Positions 10,726 through 62,810 of a stretch of 64,000 nucleotides of DNA are shown here, piece after piece. Both the position numbers and the translations under genes were made by a program. The DNA is from an uncultured Actinomycetota bacterium. Lineage in GTDB: Bacteria; Actinomycetota; Actinomycetes; Propionibacteriales; Nocardioidaceae. The first letter of the stretch is position 1; every line of letters starts with the position of its first letter. The DNA is taken from NCBI GenBank assembly GCA_963820035.1, contig CAWFYK010000002.1, forward strand, positions 724,524 through 788,523. Reading direction: 5' to 3'. Below the pieces are notes generated by a model. That model worked only from the letters and a program-made list of their open reading frames with translations, did no database searches and was not told where the DNA came from.

Positions 10726-10857
10726 CCGCCGAACCGTCACCTTCTTACCGCCGAACCGTCACCTTCTTACCGCCGAACCGTCACGTTCTTACCGCCGAAC
10801 CGTCACCTGCTTACCGCCGAACCGTCACGTTCTTACCGCCGAACCGTCAAGAAGTTC
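10726..10857. repeat. R22-A left arm, locus 1: 6 tandem 22-bp units CCGCCGAACCGTCACCTTCTTA
   Basis: Units start at 10726 + 22n. The last unit is the variant CCGCCGAACCGTCAAGAAGTTC. The array begins 4 bp after the qor-like stop codon. Confidence 0.95.
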
Positions 10858-10915
10858 CCGGCATGACGCCTCCGCGAGCAGCTCAAACAGCCGAGAGAAG
10901 AGATGGCGGCTGGAC

Positions 10916-11047
10916 TGCAAGAACCTGACGGCTCGACCGGAACAACCTGACGGCTCGACCGCAACAACCTGACGGCTCGACCGGAAGAACATGACGGCTC
11001 GACCGGAAGAACATGACGGCTCGAGGGTAATTACCTGACGGCTCGGC
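10916..11047. repeat. R22-A right arm, locus 1: 6 tandem 22-bp units GGAAGAACATGACGGCTCGACC (diverged inverse of the left arm)
   Basis: TGACGG anchor at 10926, 10948, 10970, 10992, 11014 and 11036. The last unit overlaps the 3' codons (RRAVR-stop) of the 11031..12317 ORF. Confidence 0.95.
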
Positions 11048-16883: not shown

Positions 16884-18191
16884 ATGCCCACCACCTTTGA
16901 CTCCGACGCGGAGGCAGCGGGACTGTGCGCCTTCGTCGATGCGTCCCCTTCGCCGTTCCATGCCTGCACTGAGGCGGCCGCAGTCCTCGAGGCCAGCGGC
17001 TTCACGGCGCTCGACGAGACGGCCGGCTGGCCGCGCGAACCTGGCCGCTACTACACGACTCGCGGCGGCTCACTCGTCGCCTGGAGCACGGAGTACGCCG
17101 ATGGCCGCGCGACGCCGTTCCGCGTCGTCGGAGCCCACACGGACAGCCCCAACCTGCGGATCAAGCCACGCCCCGACGTCTCCCGCGCCGGCTGGCGGCT
17201 GCTCGGCGTCGAGGTCTACGGCGGTCCGCTGCTGAACTCCTGGCTCGACCGCGATCTCGGGCTCTCGGGGCGCGTCACTGTCCGGGGAGCGAGCGGCGTG
17301 GAGGAGCGGCTGGTCGCGATCAACGACCCGATCCTGCGGGTCGCGCAGCTCGCGGTGCATCTCGACCGCGAGGTCAACGAAGCCGGAGTGAAGCTCAACC
17401 CGCAGCAGCACCTCGCACCGATCTGGGGCGTTGGCACGGAGCCGGGCGACTTCCGCGCCATGGTCGCCGACACCGTGGGGTCCGAGCGTGACGACGTCCT
17501 GGGCTGGGACCTGATGACCCACGACCTCACCCCCTCGCGCCGCATCGGTCAGGACCGGGAGCTCATCGCGGCGCCTCGCCTCGACAACCTCGCCACGACG
17601 TACGCCGGGGTGAGGGCGATGGTCACGGCCGTCGAGACGGCTCCCGCGTCGCCCCAGGTGCTGGTGCTCGTCTTGTTCGACCACGAGGAGAACGGCAGCA
17701 TGTCCGAGCGCGGCGCCTTCTCGACGCTGCTGCCCGCCACGTTGGAGCGAATCGTGATCACCCGCGGCGGTGATCGGGAGGACTACCTGAGGGCCCTTGC
17801 CGGATCCGTCATCGCGTCCGGCGACATGGGTCACGCGACCCACCCCAACTACGCCGAGCGACACGAGCCACAGCACCAGATCGCCGTCAACGGCGGCCCG
17901 GTGCTGAAGGTCAACAACCGGCTGCGCTATGCGACCGACGCGCGGGGGACGGCGGCGTTCTCGCTCGCGTGCGCGCAGGCCGGCGTACCTGTCCAGCAGT
18001 TCGTCGGGCGCTCCGACATCCCGTGTGGCTCGACGGTCGGCCCGATGACGGCCGCCCTCACCGGAGCGACGACCGTGGACTTCGGGGCGGCTGCCCTGTC
18101 GATGCACTCGGCGCGAGAGCTGTGCGGCGCGGATGACCCCGCGATGTACGCCGCCGCCCTGGCCGCCTTCCTGTCCCCCGCCGCCCCTTGA
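16884..18191 (+). CDS. apeB: M18-family aspartyl aminopeptidase
   Basis: MPTTFDSDAEA..., SPSPFHA, VGAHTDSPNLRIKP, LFDHEENGS, SMHSARE. The ORF upstream of ATG 16884 is antisense to the permease and not protein-like. Confidence 0.8.
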   Translation: MPTTFDSDAEAAGLCAFVDASPSPFHACTEAAAVLEASGFTALDETAGWPREPGRYYTTRGGSLVAWSTEYADGRATPFRVVGAHTDSPNLRIKPRPDVSRAGWRLLGVEVYGGPLLNSWLDRDLGLSGRVTVRGASGVEERLVAINDPILRVAQLAVHLDREVNEAGVKLNPQQHLAPIWGVGTEPGDFRAMVADTVGSERDDVLGWDLMTHDLTPSRRIGQDRELIAAPRLDNLATTYAGVRAMVTAVETAPASPQVLVLVLFDHEENGSMSERGAFSTLLPATLERIVITRGGDREDYLRALAGSVIASGDMGHATHPNYAERHEPQHQIAVNGGPVLKVNNRLRYATDARGTAAFSLACAQAGVPVQQFVGRSDIPCGSTVGPMTAALTGATTVDFGAAALSMHSARELCGADDPAMYAAALAAFLSPAAP

Positions 18192-18244
18192 CCATCCGAG
18201 ACGTCCGGAAGTCTCGGATGGTGGTGCCGGAAGTCTCGGATGGT
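18191..18244. repeat. Minimal R22-B element: one inverted unit plus two direct units that form a perfect hairpin between convergent genes
   Basis: ACCATCCGAGAC (18191-18202), loop GTCCGGAA, GTCTCGGATGGT (18211-18222), then a second direct unit to 18244. It fills the whole gap between the apeB stop (18189-18191) and the marR-like stop (18253-18255). Confidence 0.85.
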
Positions 18245-18252
18245 TGGGGGGG

Positions 18253-18837
18253 TCAGGGGTCGAGGTTCTCCAGGCCACGGATCGCGACCTCGAGGAGCTC
18301 CGCCAGCTGGGCACGCTGGCGCTTGGTGAGACAGGCGAGTACGTCGGACTCGAGCATGTCCGACTCCCGGATCGCGCTACGGAAGAGCTCCCAGCCGAGG
18401 TCGGACAGCACGACCCGCACGCGGACCCGGTTCTCCGGGTCGGTCGAGCGGGTGACCAGTCCGCGGGCGGTCATCCGGTCCAGCCGATGCGTCATCGACG
18501 ACGGCGCGACGTTGGCAGCGTCCGCGAGCTCGCTCGGCGTACATCCTCGGCCGCCCTGATCGCGCACCAGAGTGCTCATCACGGACCACTCCCCCGCGGA
18601 GATGTCGAGGTCCGCTAGCTGCCGGTCGTACCACTGGTTGAGGCGCCTGGCGAGGCCGTGTACGGCGGTGATCACGCGCTGCACCGACTCGTCGCCGCCG
18701 GCGGCGACATAGACCGCCACATCCTGACGGTGCGCCTCGGAGAGGGAGGTCGCCGTGGACGGGGAGCCGGCCGGCCCGGGCGAGCCGCCCGACAACGGCG
18801 CGGGTGAGCGCCGAAGAGCCGTCCGCTTGCGCGCCAT
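18253..18837 (-). CDS. MarR-family transcriptional regulator
   Basis: ...LARRLNQWYDRQLADLDISAGEWSVMSTLVRD...PSELADAANVAPSSMTHRLDRMTARGLVTR. Start set at MARKRT (18837) because the longer N-terminus is encoded by an AT-rich stretch. Confidence 0.8.
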   Translation of the reverse strand: MARKRTALRRSPAPLSGGSPGPAGSPSTATSLSEAHRQDVAVYVAAGGDESVQRVITAVHGLARRLNQWYDRQLADLDISAGEWSVMSTLVRDQGGRGCTPSELADAANVAPSSMTHRLDRMTARGLVTRSTDPENRVRVRVVLSDLGWELFRSAIRESDMLESDVLACLTKRQRAQLAELLEVAIRGLENLDP

Positions 18838-22318: not shown

Positions 22319-22381
22319 CTTGTGCCGCCGACGCGAGAGAAGATCCCGGCGGACCCTTGCGCCGTCGTACCCCAGGTCGTC

Positions 22382-22572
22382 AAAACTCTCGGATCGTCGT
22401 ACCGAAACTCTCGGATCGTCGTGCCGAAACTCTCGGATCGTCGTGCCGAAACTCTCGGATCGTCGTACCGAAACTCTCGGATCGTCGTACCGAAACTCTC
22501 GGATCGTCGTGCCAAAACTCTCGGATCGTGGTGCCGAAACTCCCGGATCGTGGTGCCGAAACTCTCGGATCG
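22382..22572 (+). repeat. R22-B single-arm array: 9 tandem 22-bp units (GAAACTCTCGGATCGTCGTACC / ..GTGGTGCC)
   Basis: TCGGATCG anchor at 22389 + 22n (n=0..8; unit 8 carries TCCCGG). The last unit runs straight into the stop codon of the GroES-like gene (22573-22575). Confidence 0.95.
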
Positions 22573-22914
22573 TCAGAGGTAGAGGCCGGTGGCGCCTTCT
22601 TCGACGCGTTCGGAGGCGACGGCGTGCAGGTCGCGCTCGCGGAGCAGGATGTACATGTCGCCGCGCACCTCGACCTCGGCCTTGTCCTCGGGGTCGAAGA
22701 GCACCCGATCGCCCGCCTCCACGGTGCGGACGTTGGCCCCGACACCGGCCACCCGCGCCCAGGCGAGCCGGCGGCCCATCATCGCAGTCGCCGGGATGAC
22801 GATCCCGGCCGAGGACTTGCGCTCACCGGCCTCGGCGTCGAGCTGGACGAGCACCCGGTCGTGGAGCATCCGGATCGGCAGCTTCTCGACCGGAGTTGGT
22901 GTGTTCTTCGTCAC
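22573..22914 (-). CDS. GroES-like co-chaperonin family protein (non-canonical)
   Basis: IRMLHDRVLVQ..., SAGIVIP, GDRVLF, GDMYILLRERDLHAV follow the GroES pattern. It is not adjacent to a groEL. Confidence 0.55.
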   Translation of the reverse strand: MTKNTPTPVEKLPIRMLHDRVLVQLDAEAGERKSSAGIVIPATAMMGRRLAWARVAGVGANVRTVEAGDRVLFDPEDKAEVEVRGDMYILLRERDLHAVASERVEEGATGLYL

Positions 22915-23778: not shown

Positions 23779-23861
23779 GCCAGAGTGGTGGAATTGGCAG
23801 ACACGCGGGCTTTAGGTGCCCGTGCCCTTTGGGCGTGAGGGTTCGAGTCCCTTCTCTGGTA
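23779..23861 (+). tRNA. tRNA-Leu (anticodon UAG), class II with a long variable arm; no encoded CCA
   Basis: Acceptor GCCAGAG/CTCTGGT, anticodon stem CGGGC/GCCCG with loop TTTAGGT, variable arm GCCCTTTGGGCG, T-arm GAGGGTTCGAGTCCCTT. Confidence 0.9.
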
Positions 23862-33751: not shown

Positions 33752-34386
33752 GCGACCCGCTGGACATCCTGCGACGTGAACCGAGCGCCGTCTTCCCCGA
33801 CCCGGAGTTCGCCGACCGGCTGCGCGCACGGCTCACGCGCGCCCTCGACCCCCAGGAAGCCGACTATCACCTAGGAGCAGACATGAGTCCCACCCCCGCG
33901 TCCTCGACCGCCAGTCAACCTGCCGAGACGGCAAGGCCGGCCGAGAGGGACGCGGCCGAGGCGGCAACGCCGGCCGAGGCGGCAACGCCGGCCGAGGCGG
34001 CAACGCCGGCGATGGTGCCCTACCTCGCCGCCCAGGGCGCTCGAGAGGCCATCGACTGGTACACCGACGTGTTCGGCGCCACCCTCGCCGGCGACCCGAT
34101 CGTGATGCCCGACGGCCGCATCGGCCACAGCGAGCTGCACATCGGACGAGCCGTCATCTACCTCTCCGATGCACACCCCGAGATCGGTGTTGTCGCGCCG
34201 ACGGCGGGCGAGGCCTCGGTCAGCCTGATGCTGACAGTCGACGACGCGGACGCCGTACTCGCTCGTGCACAGCGAGCCGGTGGCCGAAGCGACCGAGAGC
34301 CCTACGACGCCTACGGGCGGCGCAACGCGTGGATGATCGACCCGTTCGGGCATCGCTGGGGACTGAACAGCCCGATTCGAGGCTGA
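33748..34386 (+). CDS. VOC (glyoxalase/PhnB-like) domain protein with an N-terminal extension, translationally coupled to the sigma factor
   Basis: ATGA overlap with the sigma stop. The C-terminal half (MVPYLAAQGAREAIDWYTDVFGA...HSELHIG...IYLSDA...WMIDPFGHRWGL) is PhnB/VOC-like. Confidence 0.7.
   Translation: MSDPLDILRREPSAVFPDPEFADRLRARLTRALDPQEADYHLGADMSPTPASSTASQPAETARPAERDAAEAATPAEAATPAEAATPAMVPYLAAQGAREAIDWYTDVFGATLAGDPIVMPDGRIGHSELHIGRAVIYLSDAHPEIGVVAPTAGEASVSLMLTVDDADAVLARAQRAGGRSDREPYDAYGRRNAWMIDPFGHRWGLNSPIRG
33955..34008 (+). repeat. In-frame 18-bp tandem repeat x3 (AEAATP) in the linker of the VOC protein
   Basis: GCCGAGGCGGCAACGCCG at 33955, 33973 and 33991. Confidence 0.9.
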
Positions 34387-34434: not shown

Positions 34435-34660
34435 GCAACCATCCGAGAGTTTCGGCACCACCATCCGAGACTTCCGGCACCACCATCCGAGAGTTCCGGT
34501 ACGACGATCCGAGACTTCCGGCACCACCATCCGAGAGTTCCGGCACCACCATCCGAGAGTTCCGGCACGACGATCCGAGACTTCCGGCACCACCATCCGA
34601 GAGTTCCGGCACCACCATCCGAGAGTTCCGGTACGACGATCCGAGACTCCCGGCATCGGC
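34435..34660. repeat. R22-B composite copy 1, left arm: 10 tandem 22-bp units (ACCACCATCCGAGAGTTCCGGC type)
   Basis: ATCCGAG anchor at 34441 + 22n (n=0..9) with no phase slips. Two sub-types are interleaved (ACCACCATCC / ACGACGATCC). Confidence 0.95.
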
Positions 34661-34924
34661 ATGGCCGGCTGCGGGGTCCCCTCTGTCAAGCGGCGTGCGT
34701 TGGTCGGGACGTGAAGAACAGCGGTGACGGCGGCTTTCGAGCTGCTCGTGTTGGTATGGCGCCGCGCGTCTGGGCCGGTGAACACAATCACGTTCGCAAA
34801 CAAAGAAGTTCGGCGCCAGTGCGACGGAACCACCTCGAGGGCCGTTGCGTCACTGCCGTTGTTCACGTCCCGAGCAACGCACGCCGCCTGAAGGAAGCGA
34901 CCCGCAATCGGGCTGTGCCGCAGG
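34661..34924. other. R22-B 264-bp core, copy 1 (internally palindromic, non-coding)
   Basis: Identical by eye to 41403-41666. Contains 43-nt imperfect inverted arms around a 118-nt, less GC-rich centre. Confidence 0.85.
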
Positions 34925-34925
34925 G

Positions 34926-35227
34926 TCGGATCGTGGTGCCGGAACTCTCGGATCGTCGTACCAAAACTCTCGGATCGTCCTACCAAAACTCTCGGATCGT
35001 GGTGCCGGAACTCTCGGATGGTCCTGCCAAAACTCTCGGATCGTACGTACCAAAACTCTCGGATCGACGTGCCAAAACTCTCGGATCGTCCTACCAAAAC
35101 TCTCGGATCGTCGTACCAAAACTCTCGGATCGTCGTACCAAAACTCTCGGATCGTGGTGCCAGAACTCTCGGATCGTGGTGCCAGAACTCTCGGATCGTG
35201 GTGCCAGAACTCTCGGATGGTCGGGAG
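34926..35227. repeat. R22-B composite copy 1, right arm: one partial plus 13 tandem units (GGAACTCTCGGATCGTGGTGCC type)
   Basis: TCGGATCG anchor at 34948 + 22n. A single 23-bp unit shifts the phase by +1 from 35059. The array ends 18 bp before the MBL stop codon. Confidence 0.95.
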
Positions 35228-35245: not shown

Positions 35246-36004
35246 TCAGAGGTGGTAGGACAGGCCGGGGCGCGCCACCGACAGCGCGCCGGTGAAGTGC
35301 GGCTCGGCGTCGGCAAGCACCCGGTCGCGGTCGACCCAGGGCTGGACGTGGGTCAGCAGCAGCTGACCGGCGCCGGCGCGCGTGGCGATTTCGGCCGCCT
35401 CCCGCCCCGACATGTGCAGGTGCTCGGGCTTCTCCCCGTTCTCGAGGAACGTCGCCTCCGCGAGCAGCAGGTCGCAGCCGACGGCGATCGACTCCAACGC
35501 GTCGCACGGTCCGGTGTCACCGGAGTAGACCAACGTCCGCTCGTCGGCGGTGACGCGGATCGCGTAGGCGTCCACCGGGTGGTCGACGTTGGTGGTGTCG
35601 ATGCGGAACGGGCCGATGTCGACGGGCTTGCCGTCGTACTCGCGGAAGTCGAACTCGGCGGTCATGCCCGGCTCGGGGGCGATGTCGTAGGCACGCGCCA
35701 TCCGGCCGGCCACCCCCGGTGGACCGAAGACCGGGATCGAGCCCAGGTGGCCGCTCGGGTGGTATTTCCGCACCACATAGAAGCCGCAGAGATCGAGGCA
35801 GTGGTCGGCGTGCAGGTGAGTGAAGGCCACCGCGTCGATGGTGCGGAGGTCGACGTAGTTCTGCAGCGCGCCGAGGGCGCCGCTGCCGAGGTCGAGCAGC
35901 AACCGGAAGTCGCGACCGTGATACGCCGTCTCGACCAGGTAGCACGAGGCCGGCGAGTCCGGGCCGGGAAAGGAGCCGGAGCAGCCGACGACGGTGAGCT
36001 TCAT
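35246..36004 (-). CDS. MBL-fold metallo-hydrolase (Rv1339-like)
   Basis: [38 protein letters not shown]. The start ATG overlaps the murI stop (ATGA). Confidence 0.8.
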
Positions 36005-39626: not shown

Positions 39627-40952
39627 GTGCACACGACGGGTCTGCTGACCGACCACTACGAGCTCACGATGGTGCAAGCGGCGCTTCGATCGGGCACCGC
39701 CGAGCGGTCGAGCGTCTTCGAGGTGTTCGCCCGCCGGCTGCCGGACGGCCGTCGTTACGGTGTCGTCGCCGGGACCGGCCGGATCCTCGATGCGCTCTCG
39801 TCGTTCCGCTTCGACTCCTCCCAGCTCGGCTGGCTCGCCGACAACGGCATCGTCGACGAGCCGACGCTGGAATGGCTGTCCCGCTACCACTTCAGTGGCA
39901 CGATCTCCGGCTACGGCGAGGGCGACGCCTACTTCCCGGGCAGCCCGATCCTGGTGGTCGAGGCCAGCTTCGCCGAGGGAGTGCTGCTCGAGACGCTGAT
40001 CCTGTCGATCCTCAACCACGACTCGGCCGTGGCATCAGCGGCATCTCGGATGAGCCGGGCTGCTGAGGGGCGGCCGTGCATCGAGATGGGCTCCCGCCGT
40101 ACCCACGAGCGGGGAGCGGTCGCGGCCGCCCGAGCCGCCTACATCACGGGCTTCTCGGCGACCTCGAACCTGCAGGCCGGTCTCGACTACGGCGTCCCGA
40201 CGGCCGGCACCGCCGCCCACTCGTTCACGCTGCTGCACGACAGTGAGCGCGACGCCTTCACGACCCAGGTCGAGACGCTCGGGCGGGGTACGACGCTGCT
40301 CGTCGACACCTACGACGTCGGGGAGGCGGTGAAGACGGCCATCGACGTCGCGGGACCCGAGCTGGGCGCGGTGCGGATCGACTCAGGCGACCTGAGCCTG
40401 CTCGCCAAGCAGGTACGCCGCCAGCTCGACGAGCTCGGTGCGACGGCGACCCGCATCATCGTGACGAGCGACTTGGACGAGTTCTCGATCGCCGGGCTCT
40501 CCGGCGCCCCCGTGGACGGCTACGGCGTGGGGACCTCCCTCGTCACCGGCTCCGGCTCCCCCACGTGCGGGTTCGTCTACAAGCTCGTCGCGCGGGCGCT
40601 GTCCGGCGAGCCAGGCGGCACGCTGCTCCCGGTCGCGAAGAAGAGCAGCCACAAGATGAGCGTGGGCGGCCGCAAATGGGCGGTCCGGCGATGTGACGCT
40701 CGCGGCAACGCCGTCGCCGAGGTGCTCGGGGTGGGCGAGCTGCCCGCCCTCGACTCGAACGAACGGCCGCTGCTCGTCCCGCTCGTGAGCGGCGGCGAGG
40801 TCGTCGGTCGGGAGACGCTCGACGACGCCCGGGCACGCCATGAACGCGCGATGGCGGAGCTGCCGGTCGAGGCCGGCAAGCTGTCGCACGGCGAGCCGGC
40901 GATCGACACCGAGTTCGTCATCCCCGACCCAGCCGCCGCCGCCCGCTCGTAG
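39627..40952 (+). CDS. pncB: Nicotinate phosphoribosyltransferase
   Basis: LLTDHYELTMVQAAL, FEVFARRLP, EMGSRRTH, GTAAHSF, VRIDSGDL. Confidence 0.9.
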   Translation: MHTTGLLTDHYELTMVQAALRSGTAERSSVFEVFARRLPDGRRYGVVAGTGRILDALSSFRFDSSQLGWLADNGIVDEPTLEWLSRYHFSGTISGYGEGDAYFPGSPILVVEASFAEGVLLETLILSILNHDSAVASAASRMSRAAEGRPCIEMGSRRTHERGAVAAARAAYITGFSATSNLQAGLDYGVPTAGTAAHSFTLLHDSERDAFTTQVETLGRGTTLLVDTYDVGEAVKTAIDVAGPELGAVRIDSGDLSLLAKQVRRQLDELGATATRIIVTSDLDEFSIAGLSGAPVDGYGVGTSLVTGSGSPTCGFVYKLVARALSGEPGGTLLPVAKKSSHKMSVGGRKWAVRRCDARGNAVAEVLGVGELPALDSNERPLLVPLVSGGEVVGRETLDDARARHERAMAELPVEAGKLSHGEPAIDTEFVIPDPAAAARS

Positions 40953-40956
40953 TACC

Positions 40957-41402
40957 CCGACGATCCGAGACTTTCGGCACCACCATCCGAGAGTTTTGGT
41001 ACGACCATCCGAGAGTTTCGGCACCACCATCCGAGAGTTTCGGTACGACGATCCGAGAGTTCCGGCACCACCATCCGAGAGTTCTGGCACCACCATCCGA
41101 GAGTTCTGGTACGACGATCCGAGAGTTCCGGCACCACGATCCGAGAGTTCCGGCACCACCATCCGAGAGTTCCGGCACCACCATCCGAGAGTTCCGGCAC
41201 CACCATCCGAGAGTTCCGGCACCACCATCCGAGAGTTCCGGCACCACCATCCGAGAGTTCCGGCACCACCATCCGAGAGTTCCGGCACCACCATCCGAGA
41301 GTTCCGGCACCACCATCCGAGAGTTCCGGCACCACCATCCGAGAGTTCTGGCACCACCATCCGAGAGTTCTGGCACGACGATCCGAGACTTCCGGCACCA
41401 CC
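40957..41402. repeat. R22-B composite copy 2, left arm: 20 tandem 22-bp units
   Basis: ATCCGAG anchor at 40963 + 22n (n=0..19) with no phase slips. Eight consecutive units (41161-41336) are identical. The array starts 4 bp after the pncB stop. Confidence 0.95.
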
Positions 41403-41666
41403 ATGGCCGGCTGCGGGGTCCCCTCTGTCAAGCGGCGTGCGTTGGTCGGGACGTGAAGAACAGCGGTGACGGCGGCTTTCGAGCTGCTCGTGTTGGTATG
41501 GCGCCGCGCGTCTGGGCCGGTGAACACAATCACGTTCGCAAACAAAGAAGTTCGGCGCCAGTGCGACGGAACCACCTCGAGGGCCGTTGCGTCACTGCCG
41601 TTGTTCACGTCCCGAGCAACGCACGCCGCCTGAAGGAAGCGACCCGCAATCGGGCTGTGCCGCAGG
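41403..41666. other. R22-B 264-bp core, copy 2
   Basis: Base-for-base equal (by eye) to 34661-34924 at a constant offset of 6,742. Inverted arms at 41429-41471 and 41590-41632 are 38/43 complementary. Confidence 0.85.
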
Positions 41667-41828
41667 GTCGGATCGTGGTGCCGGAACTCTCGGATCGTGG
41701 TGCCGGAACTCTCGGATCGTGGTGCCGGAACTCTCGGATCGTACCAAAACTCTCGGATCGCCTACCGAACTCTGGATCGCTACAAAACTCTCGGATCGTA
41801 TCGTCGTACCAAAACTCTCGGATCGTCG
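41667..41828. repeat. R22-B composite copy 2, right arm: about 7 units, progressively degenerate
   Basis: TCGGATCG at 41668, 41690, 41712 and 41734 is in phase. After that come irregular units at 41753, 41771 (TCTGGATCG), 41791 and 41818. Confidence 0.85.
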
Positions 41829-41829
41829 A

Positions 41830-41850
41830 GGGAGGGGAGGGAGGGGAGGG
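41830..41850 (+). other. G-quadruplex-type motif GGGAGGGGAGGGAGGGGAGGG
   Basis: Five G3-4 runs separated by single A residues, between the right arm and the DUF1697 stop codon (41851-41853). Confidence 0.6.
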
Positions 41851-42402
41851 TCAGGTGAGGGTGGGGGACGGCGCGGCCCACTTGTCGGCGAGGGCGGTGA
41901 CGACCTTCCAGTCGCGGCTCGTCGCGGCGAGCCCGGCTAGCTTCTCGATCCGCGCGTTGTTGGCCTTGGCCTCGTGGGAGGGCTTGGCGAGCCACATGTG
42001 GAGGTCGCGGCCGACCAGCTGCAGCCGCTCGCCGTCGACGTCCCAGCCGTTCAGTCGCTTCGTCGCCTCCGCTGCAGGCTCAGACCGCAGGAAGCTCAGA
42101 TAGTGCCGGGCGTCGTCGCCCAGCGGGTTGTCCGGGGCGGACTCGACGATGGCCCGGAGCTGCTTCGGCGTCCGCACCAGGGCCGGCACGGCGAACCCGA
42201 GCTGCTCCTCCAGCGCCGTCTCCATCATCGTCTCCACCTTCGCGGTGGACCTGGCCCGCGAGACGACGCACACGTTGCCGCTCTGGATGTGCGTCTCCAC
42301 CTCCGTGAAGCCGGCGTCGACGAGATGACCACGGAGCGCCTCCATCTTCACGAAACGGCCGCCCACGTTGACCGCTCGGAGGAACGCGATGTACGTCGCC
42401 AT
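41851..42402 (-). CDS. DUF1697-domain protein
   Basis: MATYIAFLRAVNVGGRFVKMEALR...VETHIQSGNV. The part of ORF 41851..42600 upstream of this Met is not needed. Confidence 0.7.
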   Translation of the reverse strand: MATYIAFLRAVNVGGRFVKMEALRGHLVDAGFTEVETHIQSGNVCVVSRARSTAKVETMMETALEEQLGFAVPALVRTPKQLRAIVESAPDNPLGDDARHYLSFLRSEPAAEATKRLNGWDVDGERLQLVGRDLHMWLAKPSHEAKANNARIEKLAGLAATSRDWKVVTALADKWAAPSPTLT

Positions 42403-46893: not shown

Positions 46894-47047
46894 CCGTCGA
46901 GCCGTCACCTTCTTACCGCCGAACCGTCACCTTCTTACCGCCGAACCGTCACCTTCTTACCGCCGAACCGTCACCTTCTTACCGCCGAACCGTCACCTTC
47001 TTACCGCCGAACCGTCACCTTCTTACCGCCGAACCGTCAAGAAGTTC
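46894..47047. repeat. R22-A left arm, locus 2: 7 units (1 degenerate, 5 perfect CCGCCGAACCGTCACCTTCTTA, 1 terminal variant)
   Basis: Perfect units start at 46916 + 22n (n=0..4). The terminal variant CCGCCGAACCGTCAAGAAGTTC (47026-47047) is the same as at locus 1. Confidence 0.95.
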
Positions 47048-47090
47048 CCAGTACGACGCCCCGCGCGGGAGCGTCATATCGTTGGCCGAC

Positions 47091-47288
47091 GGAACAAACC
47101 TGACGGCTCGACCGGAAGAACATGACGGCTCGACCGGAACAACCTGACGGCTCGACCGCAACAACCTGACGGCTCGACCGGAACAACCTGACGGCTCGAC
47201 CGGAAGAACATGACGGCTCGACCGGAAGAACCTGACGGCTCGACCGGAACAACCTGACGGCTCGACCGGAAGAACATGACGGCTCGCC
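47091..47288. repeat. R22-A right arm, locus 2: 9 units GGAAGAACATGACGGCTCGACC / GGAACAACCTGACGGCTCGACC
   Basis: TGACGG anchor at 47101 + 22n (n=0..8). The array ends 5 bp before the hppD stop codon (47294-47296). Confidence 0.95.
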
Positions 47289-47293
47289 GGAGG

Positions 47294-49192
<1,899 letters not shown>

Positions 49193-55038: not shown

Positions 55039-55097
55039 GCGCACCATCCTCCACCGACCGTCTCGAAGGCACGGACCTGCTGGACCATGCTGGACTG

Positions 55098-55154
55098 CGG
55101 TAGAGGCCATCAGCGAAGTGCACGTCGCGGGTCAAGGCGAGCCTCATCGCCTGT
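55098..55154 (-). promoter_or_regulatory. Fluoride riboswitch (crcB RNA motif)
   Basis: Minus-strand RNA: ACAGGCGAUGAGGCUCGCCUUGACCCGCGACGUGCACUUCGCUGAUGGCCUCUACCG. It shares GGCGAUGAGGC.CGCC and CUGAUGGCCUCUAC with the Thermotoga petrophila fluoride riboswitch as I recall it. Located about 60 nt upstream of the crcB-DUF190-crcB operon. Confidence 0.85.
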
Positions 55155-55196
55155 GCAACGAGTCTGCCCCAGACCACGGGGCTAGGCAAGCGAGAG

Positions 55197-62561: not shown

Positions 62562-62571
62562 GAAGATATCT

Positions 62572-62810
62572 CCTTCTCACGCCTGTGAGGTGAGCTGTCG
62601 GGTTCGAGCGAGAAGGTGCCCGGCCGTCAAAGGACGACTTAACCCCAAGCATGCCTACGGAAGACCGTTTCGATGCAGAAGAGTGGTTCCCCCACTTCTA
62701 CCCCTGAATGAGAGTTTCTGTGATTGGCGATTGGGTCGTAGTCGACACGGGGTAGAACTCGGCGTCCGTCGACCACGCTCTTCAGTTTTGGGTCCCGAGG
62801 ATCTAACCAC
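62572..62810 (-). promoter_or_regulatory. Probable cyclic-di-AMP riboswitch (ydaO/yuaA motif) in the 5' leader of the NlpC/P60 gene
   Basis: The minus-strand RNA contains CGGGACCCAA, GGGGUAGAAG, GGGGGAACC, UGGGGUUAAGUC and AACCCGACAGCUCACCUCACAGGCGUGAGAAGGAG. Compare Bacillus subtilis ydaO: GGGGGACCCA, GGGGUGAAUC, ACCCGAAUCCGUCAGCUAACCUCGUAAGCG. Boundaries are approximate. Confidence 0.6.

Follow-up and report, generated by a model that had tools for sequence, protein, structure and literature searches.

The DNA examined here is a stretch of 64,000 nucleotides (the window; C2:724524-788523) from the genome of a soil actinobacterium (4.8 Mb, 68.5% G+C, nine contigs), and our subject is a set of short tandem arrays in it whose ends lie at or beside the stop codons of its genes. 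Tandem Repeats Finder detects eleven 22-bp arrays of two families in the window, termed A (unit CCGCCGAGCCGTCAGGTTCTTA) and B (unit ATCCGAGAGTTCCGGCACCACC; both 22 bp), and misses a mini-element at 18189-18255. We call an array '+' where its units read as just written, and by the outer end of an arm we mean the 5' end of its '+' strand. Arrays occur singly or as inward-facing inverted pairs around a core, and each arm is built of 3-20 direct units placed head to tail. An earlier note, made from the sequence alone, had listed ten distances between array edges and stop codons in the window; checked with Tandem Repeats Finder or by direct reading, they are right to within a few bases. Pfam agrees with nine of the ten names that it gave to flanking genes (zinc-ADH/qor-like, M18 aminopeptidase, MarR, Cpn10, glyoxalase/VOC, MBL, NAPRTase, DUF1697 and HPPD-type); the open reading frame (ORF) at 11031 has no Pfam match, yet a high coding score.

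Five of the six elements in the window lie between convergent genes, and the sixth comes after the hppD stop, with the start of a histidine kinase gene on its other side. The first is a family A pair at 10726..11045 (left arm 10726-10849, right arm 10907-11045, 57-bp core), which forms a long, imperfect hairpin on folding (-146 kcal/mol, z = -5.9). Between the qor-like stop, whose last base is 10721, and the array there are 4 nt, and the stop of the minus-strand 11031 ORF lies 15 nt inside the last unit. The mini-element is a family B pair (18189..18255) that runs from the apeB stop TGA (18189-18191) through CC, one unit, two inverted units and TTGGGGGGG to the marR-like stop TCA (18253-18255), so that its edges read TGA + CC + ATCCGAGA at apeB and TGA + CCCCCCCAACC + ATCCGAGA at the marR-like gene. 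Its hairpin has an energy of -46.7 kcal/mol (z = -3.9), and Pfam names the flanks as M18 peptidase and MarR. The next element is a single family B array (22383..22574, about 8.7 units) in the sense of a Cpn10-like gene, whose minus-strand stop at 22573-22575 overlaps the first unit by 2 nt (TGA, then CGATCCGAGA).

The remaining three elements are again pairs. A family B pair at 34438..35223 (arms 34438-34655 and 34926-35223, 270-bp core) lies about 50 nt from the VOC stop, which ends at 34386, and 22 nt, taken up by a C-rich linker, from the MBL stop at 35246. A second family B pair, at 40953..41850 (left arm 40963-41404, right arm 41668-41828, 263-bp palindromic core), follows the pncB stop TAG, which ends at 40952 and is succeeded by the linker TACCC, with a gap of 10 nt to the array edge; on its other side a 22-nt G tract (41829-41850; a C/T tract on the gene strand) separates the arm from the DUF1697 stop at 41851. 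The last is a family A pair at 46894..47291 (arms 46894-47039 and 47090-47291), whose right arm is 2 nt from the native hppD stop (47294-47296, minus strand) and whose left edge faces the histidine kinase start at a distance of about 80 nt or more. The earlier note had taken this edge, 46894, for the only one in the window that faces a gene start, and so it is.

Several of these sites can be compared with relatives, all of them metagenome-assembled genomes, which under-represent repeats. G003 is a Propionibacteriales genome assembled from metagenome, and G004 belongs to the same genus as our genome (about 76-90% identity) and is no more than a proxy for the state before insertion. At the VOC/MBL site the sister species G004 and G005 have no element and a spacer of about 14-30 bp. 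The pncB/DUF1697 site is empty in G003 (14-bp spacer), in G004 (genes overlapping by 4 nt) and in G006 (genes overlapping by 29 nt); DUF1697 here has an 8-residue C-terminal extension, ending KWAAPSPTLT where relatives end KW[R/G/C]. The overlap of convergent pncB and DUF1697 in G004 and G006 also illustrates that gene packing in the genus is extremely tight. The C-terminus of hppD is conserved to its last residue in G004 (site 19), where an array of that genome's own third family, C, occupies the same place. G002 has larger, different inserts at the pncB and hppD 3' sites; in this assembly of few contigs pncB, hppD and MBL are split by frameshifts that are probably uncorrected long-read errors (G002:C2:684001-704000).

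For the census of the whole genome, arrays were called by Tandem Repeats Finder together with cyclic matching to the two consensus units, and genes with a purpose-made, crude codon-bias caller (4,409 genes) whose stops are reliable and whose starts are approximate. This gave 239 arrays in 186 elements, 134 arrays of family A and 105 of family B, 31.6 kb in total and cleanly apart from unrelated repeats. Neighbouring arrays of the same family always run '+ then -', that is inward-facing (33 pairs of A, 23 of B; 56/56), and never in the reverse order, and only 2 of 58 array pairs within 1.5 kb mix families (p = 1.6e-14). For these two reasons an array pair is taken as one palindromic element, and the rarity of mixed neighbours rules out two independent half-elements. 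One chimeric pair was seen, at C1:9710-10056, with a family A arm at one stop, a family B arm at the stop of the convergent gene and 50 bp between the arms. The units contain 36-41% C and 23-27% G, the arms being C-rich inwards from the outer end, and neither consensus has a stop codon in any of its three sense frames, so any ORF entering an arm would continue through it. Array pairs fold as long hairpins, with palindromy at the level of the whole element only. No direct target-site duplication was visible at the junctions read, no formal search having been made; the flanks are compositional mirror images, C-rich on one side and G-rich on the other. The arrays are the arms of palindromic, foldback-type intergenic elements with defined ends. 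AT-rich tandem repeats of another kind (AAAGAGAAAG…, TTTATTTTTT…) at C3:93462-95341 stand out in this 68% G+C genome and may be foreign DNA or an assembly artefact.

The earlier note had proposed that array edges keep to the 3' ends of genes. The tally over the whole genome confirms this enrichment, which is far stronger than the window suggests, is polar and recurs in other genomes. For 169 of the 239 arrays the outer edge faces a stop, with a median gap of 6 nt, and the gap is at most 10 nt for 120, about half of the arrays, against a chance expectation of 55 ± 3.5 when each element is re-placed uniformly within its own spacer (z = 18.6). Outer edges that face a start have a median gap of about 100 nt, with a single gap of 10 nt or less, and the inner edges of single arrays likewise have a median gap of about 100 nt, whatever they face. 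The polarity is seen within one class of spacer as well: among single arrays between convergent genes, a stop is at most 10 nt away for 39 outer edges and for 11 inner ones (p = 9e-5). The 186 elements are found in 84 convergent, 79 tandem and 23 divergent spacers, so that convergent spacers, 17.5% of all spacers, hold 45% of the elements (p = 2e-18); those without an element have a median length of 87 nt. Family B is the stricter, with 74 of 88 long arrays facing a stop. The elements are tied to gene ends and not randomly scattered.

Arms have a sharp outer terminus: resemblance to the unit, read in register, goes no further than 6 nt beyond the AGCCGTCA core in family A and 3-5 nt beyond ATCCGAGA in family B, and from there on the flank is unique sequence. 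Between stop and first unit lies a C/T tract of 0-25 nt with C at 0.60-0.65 and G at 0.10-0.15, compared with 0.40 and 0.32 in the first 8 nt after the stops of other genes. In 21 of 75 family B cases exactly 2 nt separate the stop from the core, giving TGA C[C/G] ATCCGAGA, in which the GA of the stop doubles as that of the unit's GAC. Four accounts of this junction were considered and set aside: a stop-like triplet is not an obligatory target, since most outer edges away from gene ends have no TGA, TAA or TAG beside the first unit; the C-rich flank is not carried along with the element, since outer flanks are unique except in segmental duplicates and for one 17-nt match; it does not consist of decayed units, in-register similarity being gone beyond 3-6 nt; and growth of the array at its outer end, consuming the spacer, is not supported, edge units being more diverged than middle units, as unequal exchange predicts. 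Two family B duplicates (C3:530509 and C6:29535) carry about 17-25 nt of the gene end at C1:369273 (…GAGCTCGGCGACTAAC) before the array, the sole sign of a flank ever copied with an element. At the inner end the two families have a motif in common, GTACGACG(G/C)C (for example at 22361-22370 of the window), which often recurs inverted in family A pairs (CGTCGTAC); single arrays usually retain it and so may be half-elements.

The shortage of G continues from the linker into the gene. At third codon positions, the fractions of C and G (C3/G3) over the last 10 codons are 0.71/0.20 in abutted genes and 0.46/0.36 in other genes, and over the next 10 codons 0.61/0.30 and 0.48/0.37; further upstream than 20 codons the two sets are alike, a restriction that rules out high expression as the source of the bias. 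Orthologues in G004 that have no array lack it (C-minus-G skew 0.151 vs 0.054, paired p = 0.0025). The choice of stop codon is shifted too: TAA, the only stop codon free of G, ends 20% of abutted genes and 4.5% of genes elsewhere (p = 5e-11). A G-poor zone, composed of the C/T-rich linker, the C-shifted last 20 codons and the excess of TAA stops, thus lies outside the outer edges. A like C-skew, 0.15-0.21, is found at outer edges that face promoters, and none at inner edges.

To compare gene ends with and without arrays, the last 200 nt of 34 array-abutted genes were searched against G004, and 29 gave an orthologue. The stop is at the same codon in 22 of these and within one codon in 4 more, the other 3 having an altered C-terminal tail, of the kind that DUF1697 illustrates: the stops used by arrays are native in-frame stops. 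At sites 11, 12 and 17 the comparison reveals a clean insertion at the extreme stop-proximal end of a retained spacer, at most 7 nt from the stop, and at other occupied sites the native spacer of the G004 type (51, 76, 182 and 268 nt) is largely or wholly gone, with 0-52 nt left. The G004 orthologue (site 6; G004:C27:29650-30300) of the family A pair at C2:327165-329540 has no array and, directly after the stop, a C-rich tract of 60 nt that is nearly devoid of G.

The third family of G004 (family C; unit GAGCCGTCGCAAACTTGCCGTC, 124 unit dimers) follows the same habit: among 27 of its outer edges, 17 point to a stop, in most cases at a distance of -7 to +15 nt, and TGA often lies within the first unit. 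It is present at 7 of the 29 orthologous gene ends that have A or B here, where about 0.5 would be expected (Poisson p ~8e-7, or 0.004 at a four-fold higher baseline); at two of these seven sites it replaces family B, and two are in opposite orientation. Gene ends have been re-used by different families, not simply inherited with their arrays. Of the two alternatives that the earlier note had offered, the first, that the elements target terminator-like sequences on insertion, is not supported: the empty sites of G004 have no common hairpin or motif, the element at site 12 lies outside the hairpin, and most outer edges away from gene ends lack a stop-like triplet. Random insertion followed by purifying selection cannot be the origin of the pattern, and simple compaction is insufficient as well, because the linkers are not left-over DNA, clean insertions lie at the stop with the spacer kept, and the phase of the junction is fixed.

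The pattern is not confined to one genome. In G003 and G001, which have variants of family B, 20 of 21 assessable outer edges face a stop, 14 at -3 to 0 nt. A wider scan, in which a public genome collection was searched for three TCCGAGA words at 22-bp spacing, found arrays also in Nocardioides panacihumi and four Streptomyces isolates. The 5' edge of the array coincides with the end of an ORF of 100 codons or more in 14 of 17 actinobacterial cases, in 3 of 27 from Bacteroidales and in 2 of 21 from other taxa. The same placement is kept in the three sister species G004, G003 and G001, whose units are other variants, and in N. panacihumi and Streptomyces. Dispersed 22-bp TCCGAGA arrays are present too in Prevotella sp. 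RGIG1607, Bacteroidales bacterium KA00251, Helicobacter, Geobacteraceae (Geobacter), Gemmatimonadota and Accumulibacter, many of these being metagenome assemblies; the arrays of Bacteroidales, Helicobacter, Geobacter and other non-actinobacterial taxa show no abutment to ORF ends and are probably unrelated.

One copy in each family bears a gene between its arms, at C5 167417-168697 in family B and at C1 313371-314815 in family A, and the other copies seen, about 180 elements, are without it. The two encoded proteins, of about 275-310 amino acids, are paralogues with 38% identity. Their weak matches to REase_MTES_1575 (PF18741) and DUF559 (PF04480), families of PD-(D/E)XK-type nucleases, suggest that they are nuclease-like, with one cognate paralogue per family, and the N-terminal part looks to be of DNA-binding type. 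A Y1 or REP-associated tyrosine transposase (RAYT) gene (PF01797) was not found anywhere in the genome, controls scoring as expected, and Rfam 15 gave no match on the arrays at the gathering score. The Rfam matches elsewhere in the window, a c-di-AMP riboswitch (62565-62739, minus strand), a fluoride riboswitch (55094-55160, minus strand) and a tRNA (23779-23861, plus strand), are unrelated to the arrays.

Our favoured reading, to which we give a probability of roughly 0.38, is that the elements are retained as transcript-end modules, possibly linked to Rho; both the RNA-level function that would keep them in place and the role of Rho as its reader we infer from sequence. The elements would persist mainly where a stop codon is directly followed by the outer end, so that the gene's 3' untranslated RNA begins with the array, and they could act on genes at both of their sides. 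An entry stretch poor in G and rich in C would be made up of the last 20 codons together with the linker and the sense array; the hairpin after it would come from the core or from the arm opposite. Such an anatomy is what one would expect of a Rho-dependent terminator or insulator, and this genome encodes Rho. The elements resemble such terminators in having C in excess of G over about 60-80 nt and beyond, regularly spaced YC dinucleotides, a downstream palindrome and a position right after the point of ribosome release; they differ in being mobile, repeated and palindromic, and in a sense RNA that is not unstructured. Action at mRNA 3' ends had been the second alternative of the earlier note and is plausible. 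The fixed orientation, the re-use of gene ends across families, the loss of native spacer and the G-poor signature in codons and stops all fit it, and we count in favour of transcript-end modules also the polar abutment, the enrichment between convergent genes, the unity of each array pair, the potential to form hairpins, the use of native stops and the replication in other genomes.

A number of observations weigh against this reading. The folding energy of sense arrays, -0.29 to -0.33 kcal/mol per nt, means a more stable structure than that of mononucleotide-shuffled sequence, so the idea of unstructured RNA is not supported and the arrays are no Rho-binding site of the classic, unstructured kind. 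A native hairpin terminator is retained at site 12, with the element placed between it and the stop; being upstream of an intact terminator, the element is redundant there as one. The modal gap of 0-2 nt, with the GA of the stop common to the first unit, is sharper than termination should need. C-skew occurs at promoter-facing edges, where no known transcript enters, and some elements lie merely 20-48 nt upstream of the next gene's start. We list on this side also the C-rich tracts after stops, which, being found in 1.8% of genes, are ruled out as a general trait of the genome.

Several of these points are better met by targeted integration, in which the nuclease and DNA-binding machinery of the elements would insert the element end immediately 3' of a gene end, the cue being either strand-asymmetric, G-poor DNA or the uncoupled state after ribosome release, and purifying selection would only remove harmful copies. 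We consider this somewhat unlikely, though a close rival of the favoured reading. The precision to the base at the junction (the 2-nt gap in 21 of 75 family B cases, the 14 edges at -3 to 0 nt in G003 and G001) speaks for it, as do the sharp outer terminus 3-6 nt outside the core, the clean insertions at sites 11, 12 and 17, one of them upstream of a retained terminator, and the possession of a nuclease paralogue by each family. It would also turn to advantage the C-skew on both outer flanks, which includes flanks free of gene ends and has the look of a DNA-level signature, and the structured sense RNA. But a DNA enzyme cannot read a reading frame, and the stops used are nevertheless native in-frame stops; outer edges away from genes mostly lack TGA, TAA and TAG; the empty sites in G004 have no common motif; and paired elements abut stops at both ends with the native spacer gone, for which insertion at a single point is insufficient.

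Under neutral compaction, insertion would occur wherever it is tolerated, a deletion bias in a compact genome would remove the non-functional DNA between the protected stop and the equally protected element end, and promoters would shield the start sides. The tight spacing of convergent genes in sister species (14 nt apart, or overlapping by 4-29 nt), the missing native spacers at several occupied sites and the roughly 100 nt kept at start-facing edges are as it would have them. What makes it improbable is that the linkers, with G at 0.10-0.15 vs 0.32, are not random leftovers, that sites 11, 12 and 17 keep the rest of their spacer with the element still at most 7 nt from the stop, that element-free convergent spacers have a median of 87 nt and the inner flanks of single arrays retain about 100 nt, and that the junction phase is fixed and not random within the unit. 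Integration guided to stops through translation, with insertion where the ribosome is released and RNA polymerase runs uncoupled, would let a DNA element in effect read the frame by way of translation; it would explain the 0-2 nt junctions at native in-frame stops, the polarity and the absent DNA target motif, and is a long shot. A platform on DNA, with units binding a protein cooperatively as a roadblock, topological barrier or gyrase-type site between transcription units, has on its side the conserved cores (TCCGAGA, GAGCCGTC; 7-8 bp) in units that otherwise vary between species, a 22-bp period equal to two helical turns, the enrichment between convergent genes, the skew symmetric at both ends and the apparent DNA-binding part of the associated proteins, but it is very doubtful, since it leaves the 0-10-nt abutment and the polarity of single arrays unexplained, does not predict codon and stop-codon shifts on one strand, and has only two array-flanked protein genes for about 186 elements.

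Among known systems, the repetitive extragenic palindromic (REP) sequences, BIME elements and REPIN-RAYT systems of proteobacteria are likewise dispersed, homogeneous within a genome, hairpin-forming and accompanied by a cognate protein gene, and they too are extragenic, mostly 3' of genes and between convergent genes, and rare in divergent spacers (here 23/186). REPs are in some cases found no more than about 15 nt from a stop codon and influence both translation and the decay of mRNA, and BIMEs act together with Rho to attenuate transcription. REPs, however, are single short palindromes or inverted doublets, whereas the elements here consist of tandem direct 22-bp units, and in place of a Y1/RAYT gene they have a protein that is nuclease-like of PD-(D/E)XK type by weak matches. 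The foldback (FB) elements of Drosophila and other eukaryotes have long terminal inverted repeats made of short tandem repeats around a variable centre, as our inverted arms are made of tandem sub-repeats (56/56 same-family pairs); they are eukaryotic and have a different transposase, the gene-bearing copies here encoding a nuclease-like protein, and we know of no relation of FB elements to stop codons. Mycobacterial interspersed repetitive units (MIRU) are actinobacterial intergenic tandem repeats that touch flanking stop and start codons, but with units of 40-100 bp inside operons, small ORFs for translational coupling and no inverted arrays.

Miniature inverted-repeat transposable elements (MITEs) of the cut-and-paste, DDE type combine terminal inverted repeats with a direct target-site duplication; of these, inverted arms are present here, and no duplication was visible at the junctions read. 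The BrickBuilt MITE of Porphyromonas gingivalis (PMC4596501) is, like these elements, non-autonomous, and it contains a spacer-less minisatellite with a similar unit, of 23 nt; its distance from coding sequences is always 49-591 nt, it includes leader and tail subunits, acts as a promoter and, unlike the elements here, does not abut stop codons. The stop-codon bias of intergenic repeats has a published precedent in the heptameric G-rich repeats of Xanthomonas and Nostoc, which have a strong such bias of unexplained function (Rehm et al. 2015, PMC4692102). They resemble our arrays in being dispersed tandem repeats, often in inverted pairs and under-represented between divergent genes. They differ in their 7-nt G-quadruplex unit, ours being of 22 nt without G-run periodicity, in lying mostly between genes of the same direction with no convergent enrichment, and in distances that were binned at 0-50 bp; an associated gene, defined ends and an effect on codon usage are not reported there. 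Our literature searches found no description of this 22-bp foldback family with its cognate nuclease paralogues, or of the polar abutment at the base level, the G-avoidance zone or the re-use of gene ends by different families.

In practical terms, the arrays break short-read assemblies, create long phantom ORFs and can alter annotated C-termini. If integration is targeted, the elements would locate gene ends by a means that is new among mobile elements. If they are transcript-end modules, as we tentatively favour, they would be mobile terminator or insulator cassettes, with turnover of families and colonisation of the same gene ends in different species, and would have reshaped the choice of codons and stops over the last 20 codons of ordinary genes. 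They would then also offer a portable handle on termination in high-G+C actinobacteria, which is poorly understood because canonical terminators are rare there.

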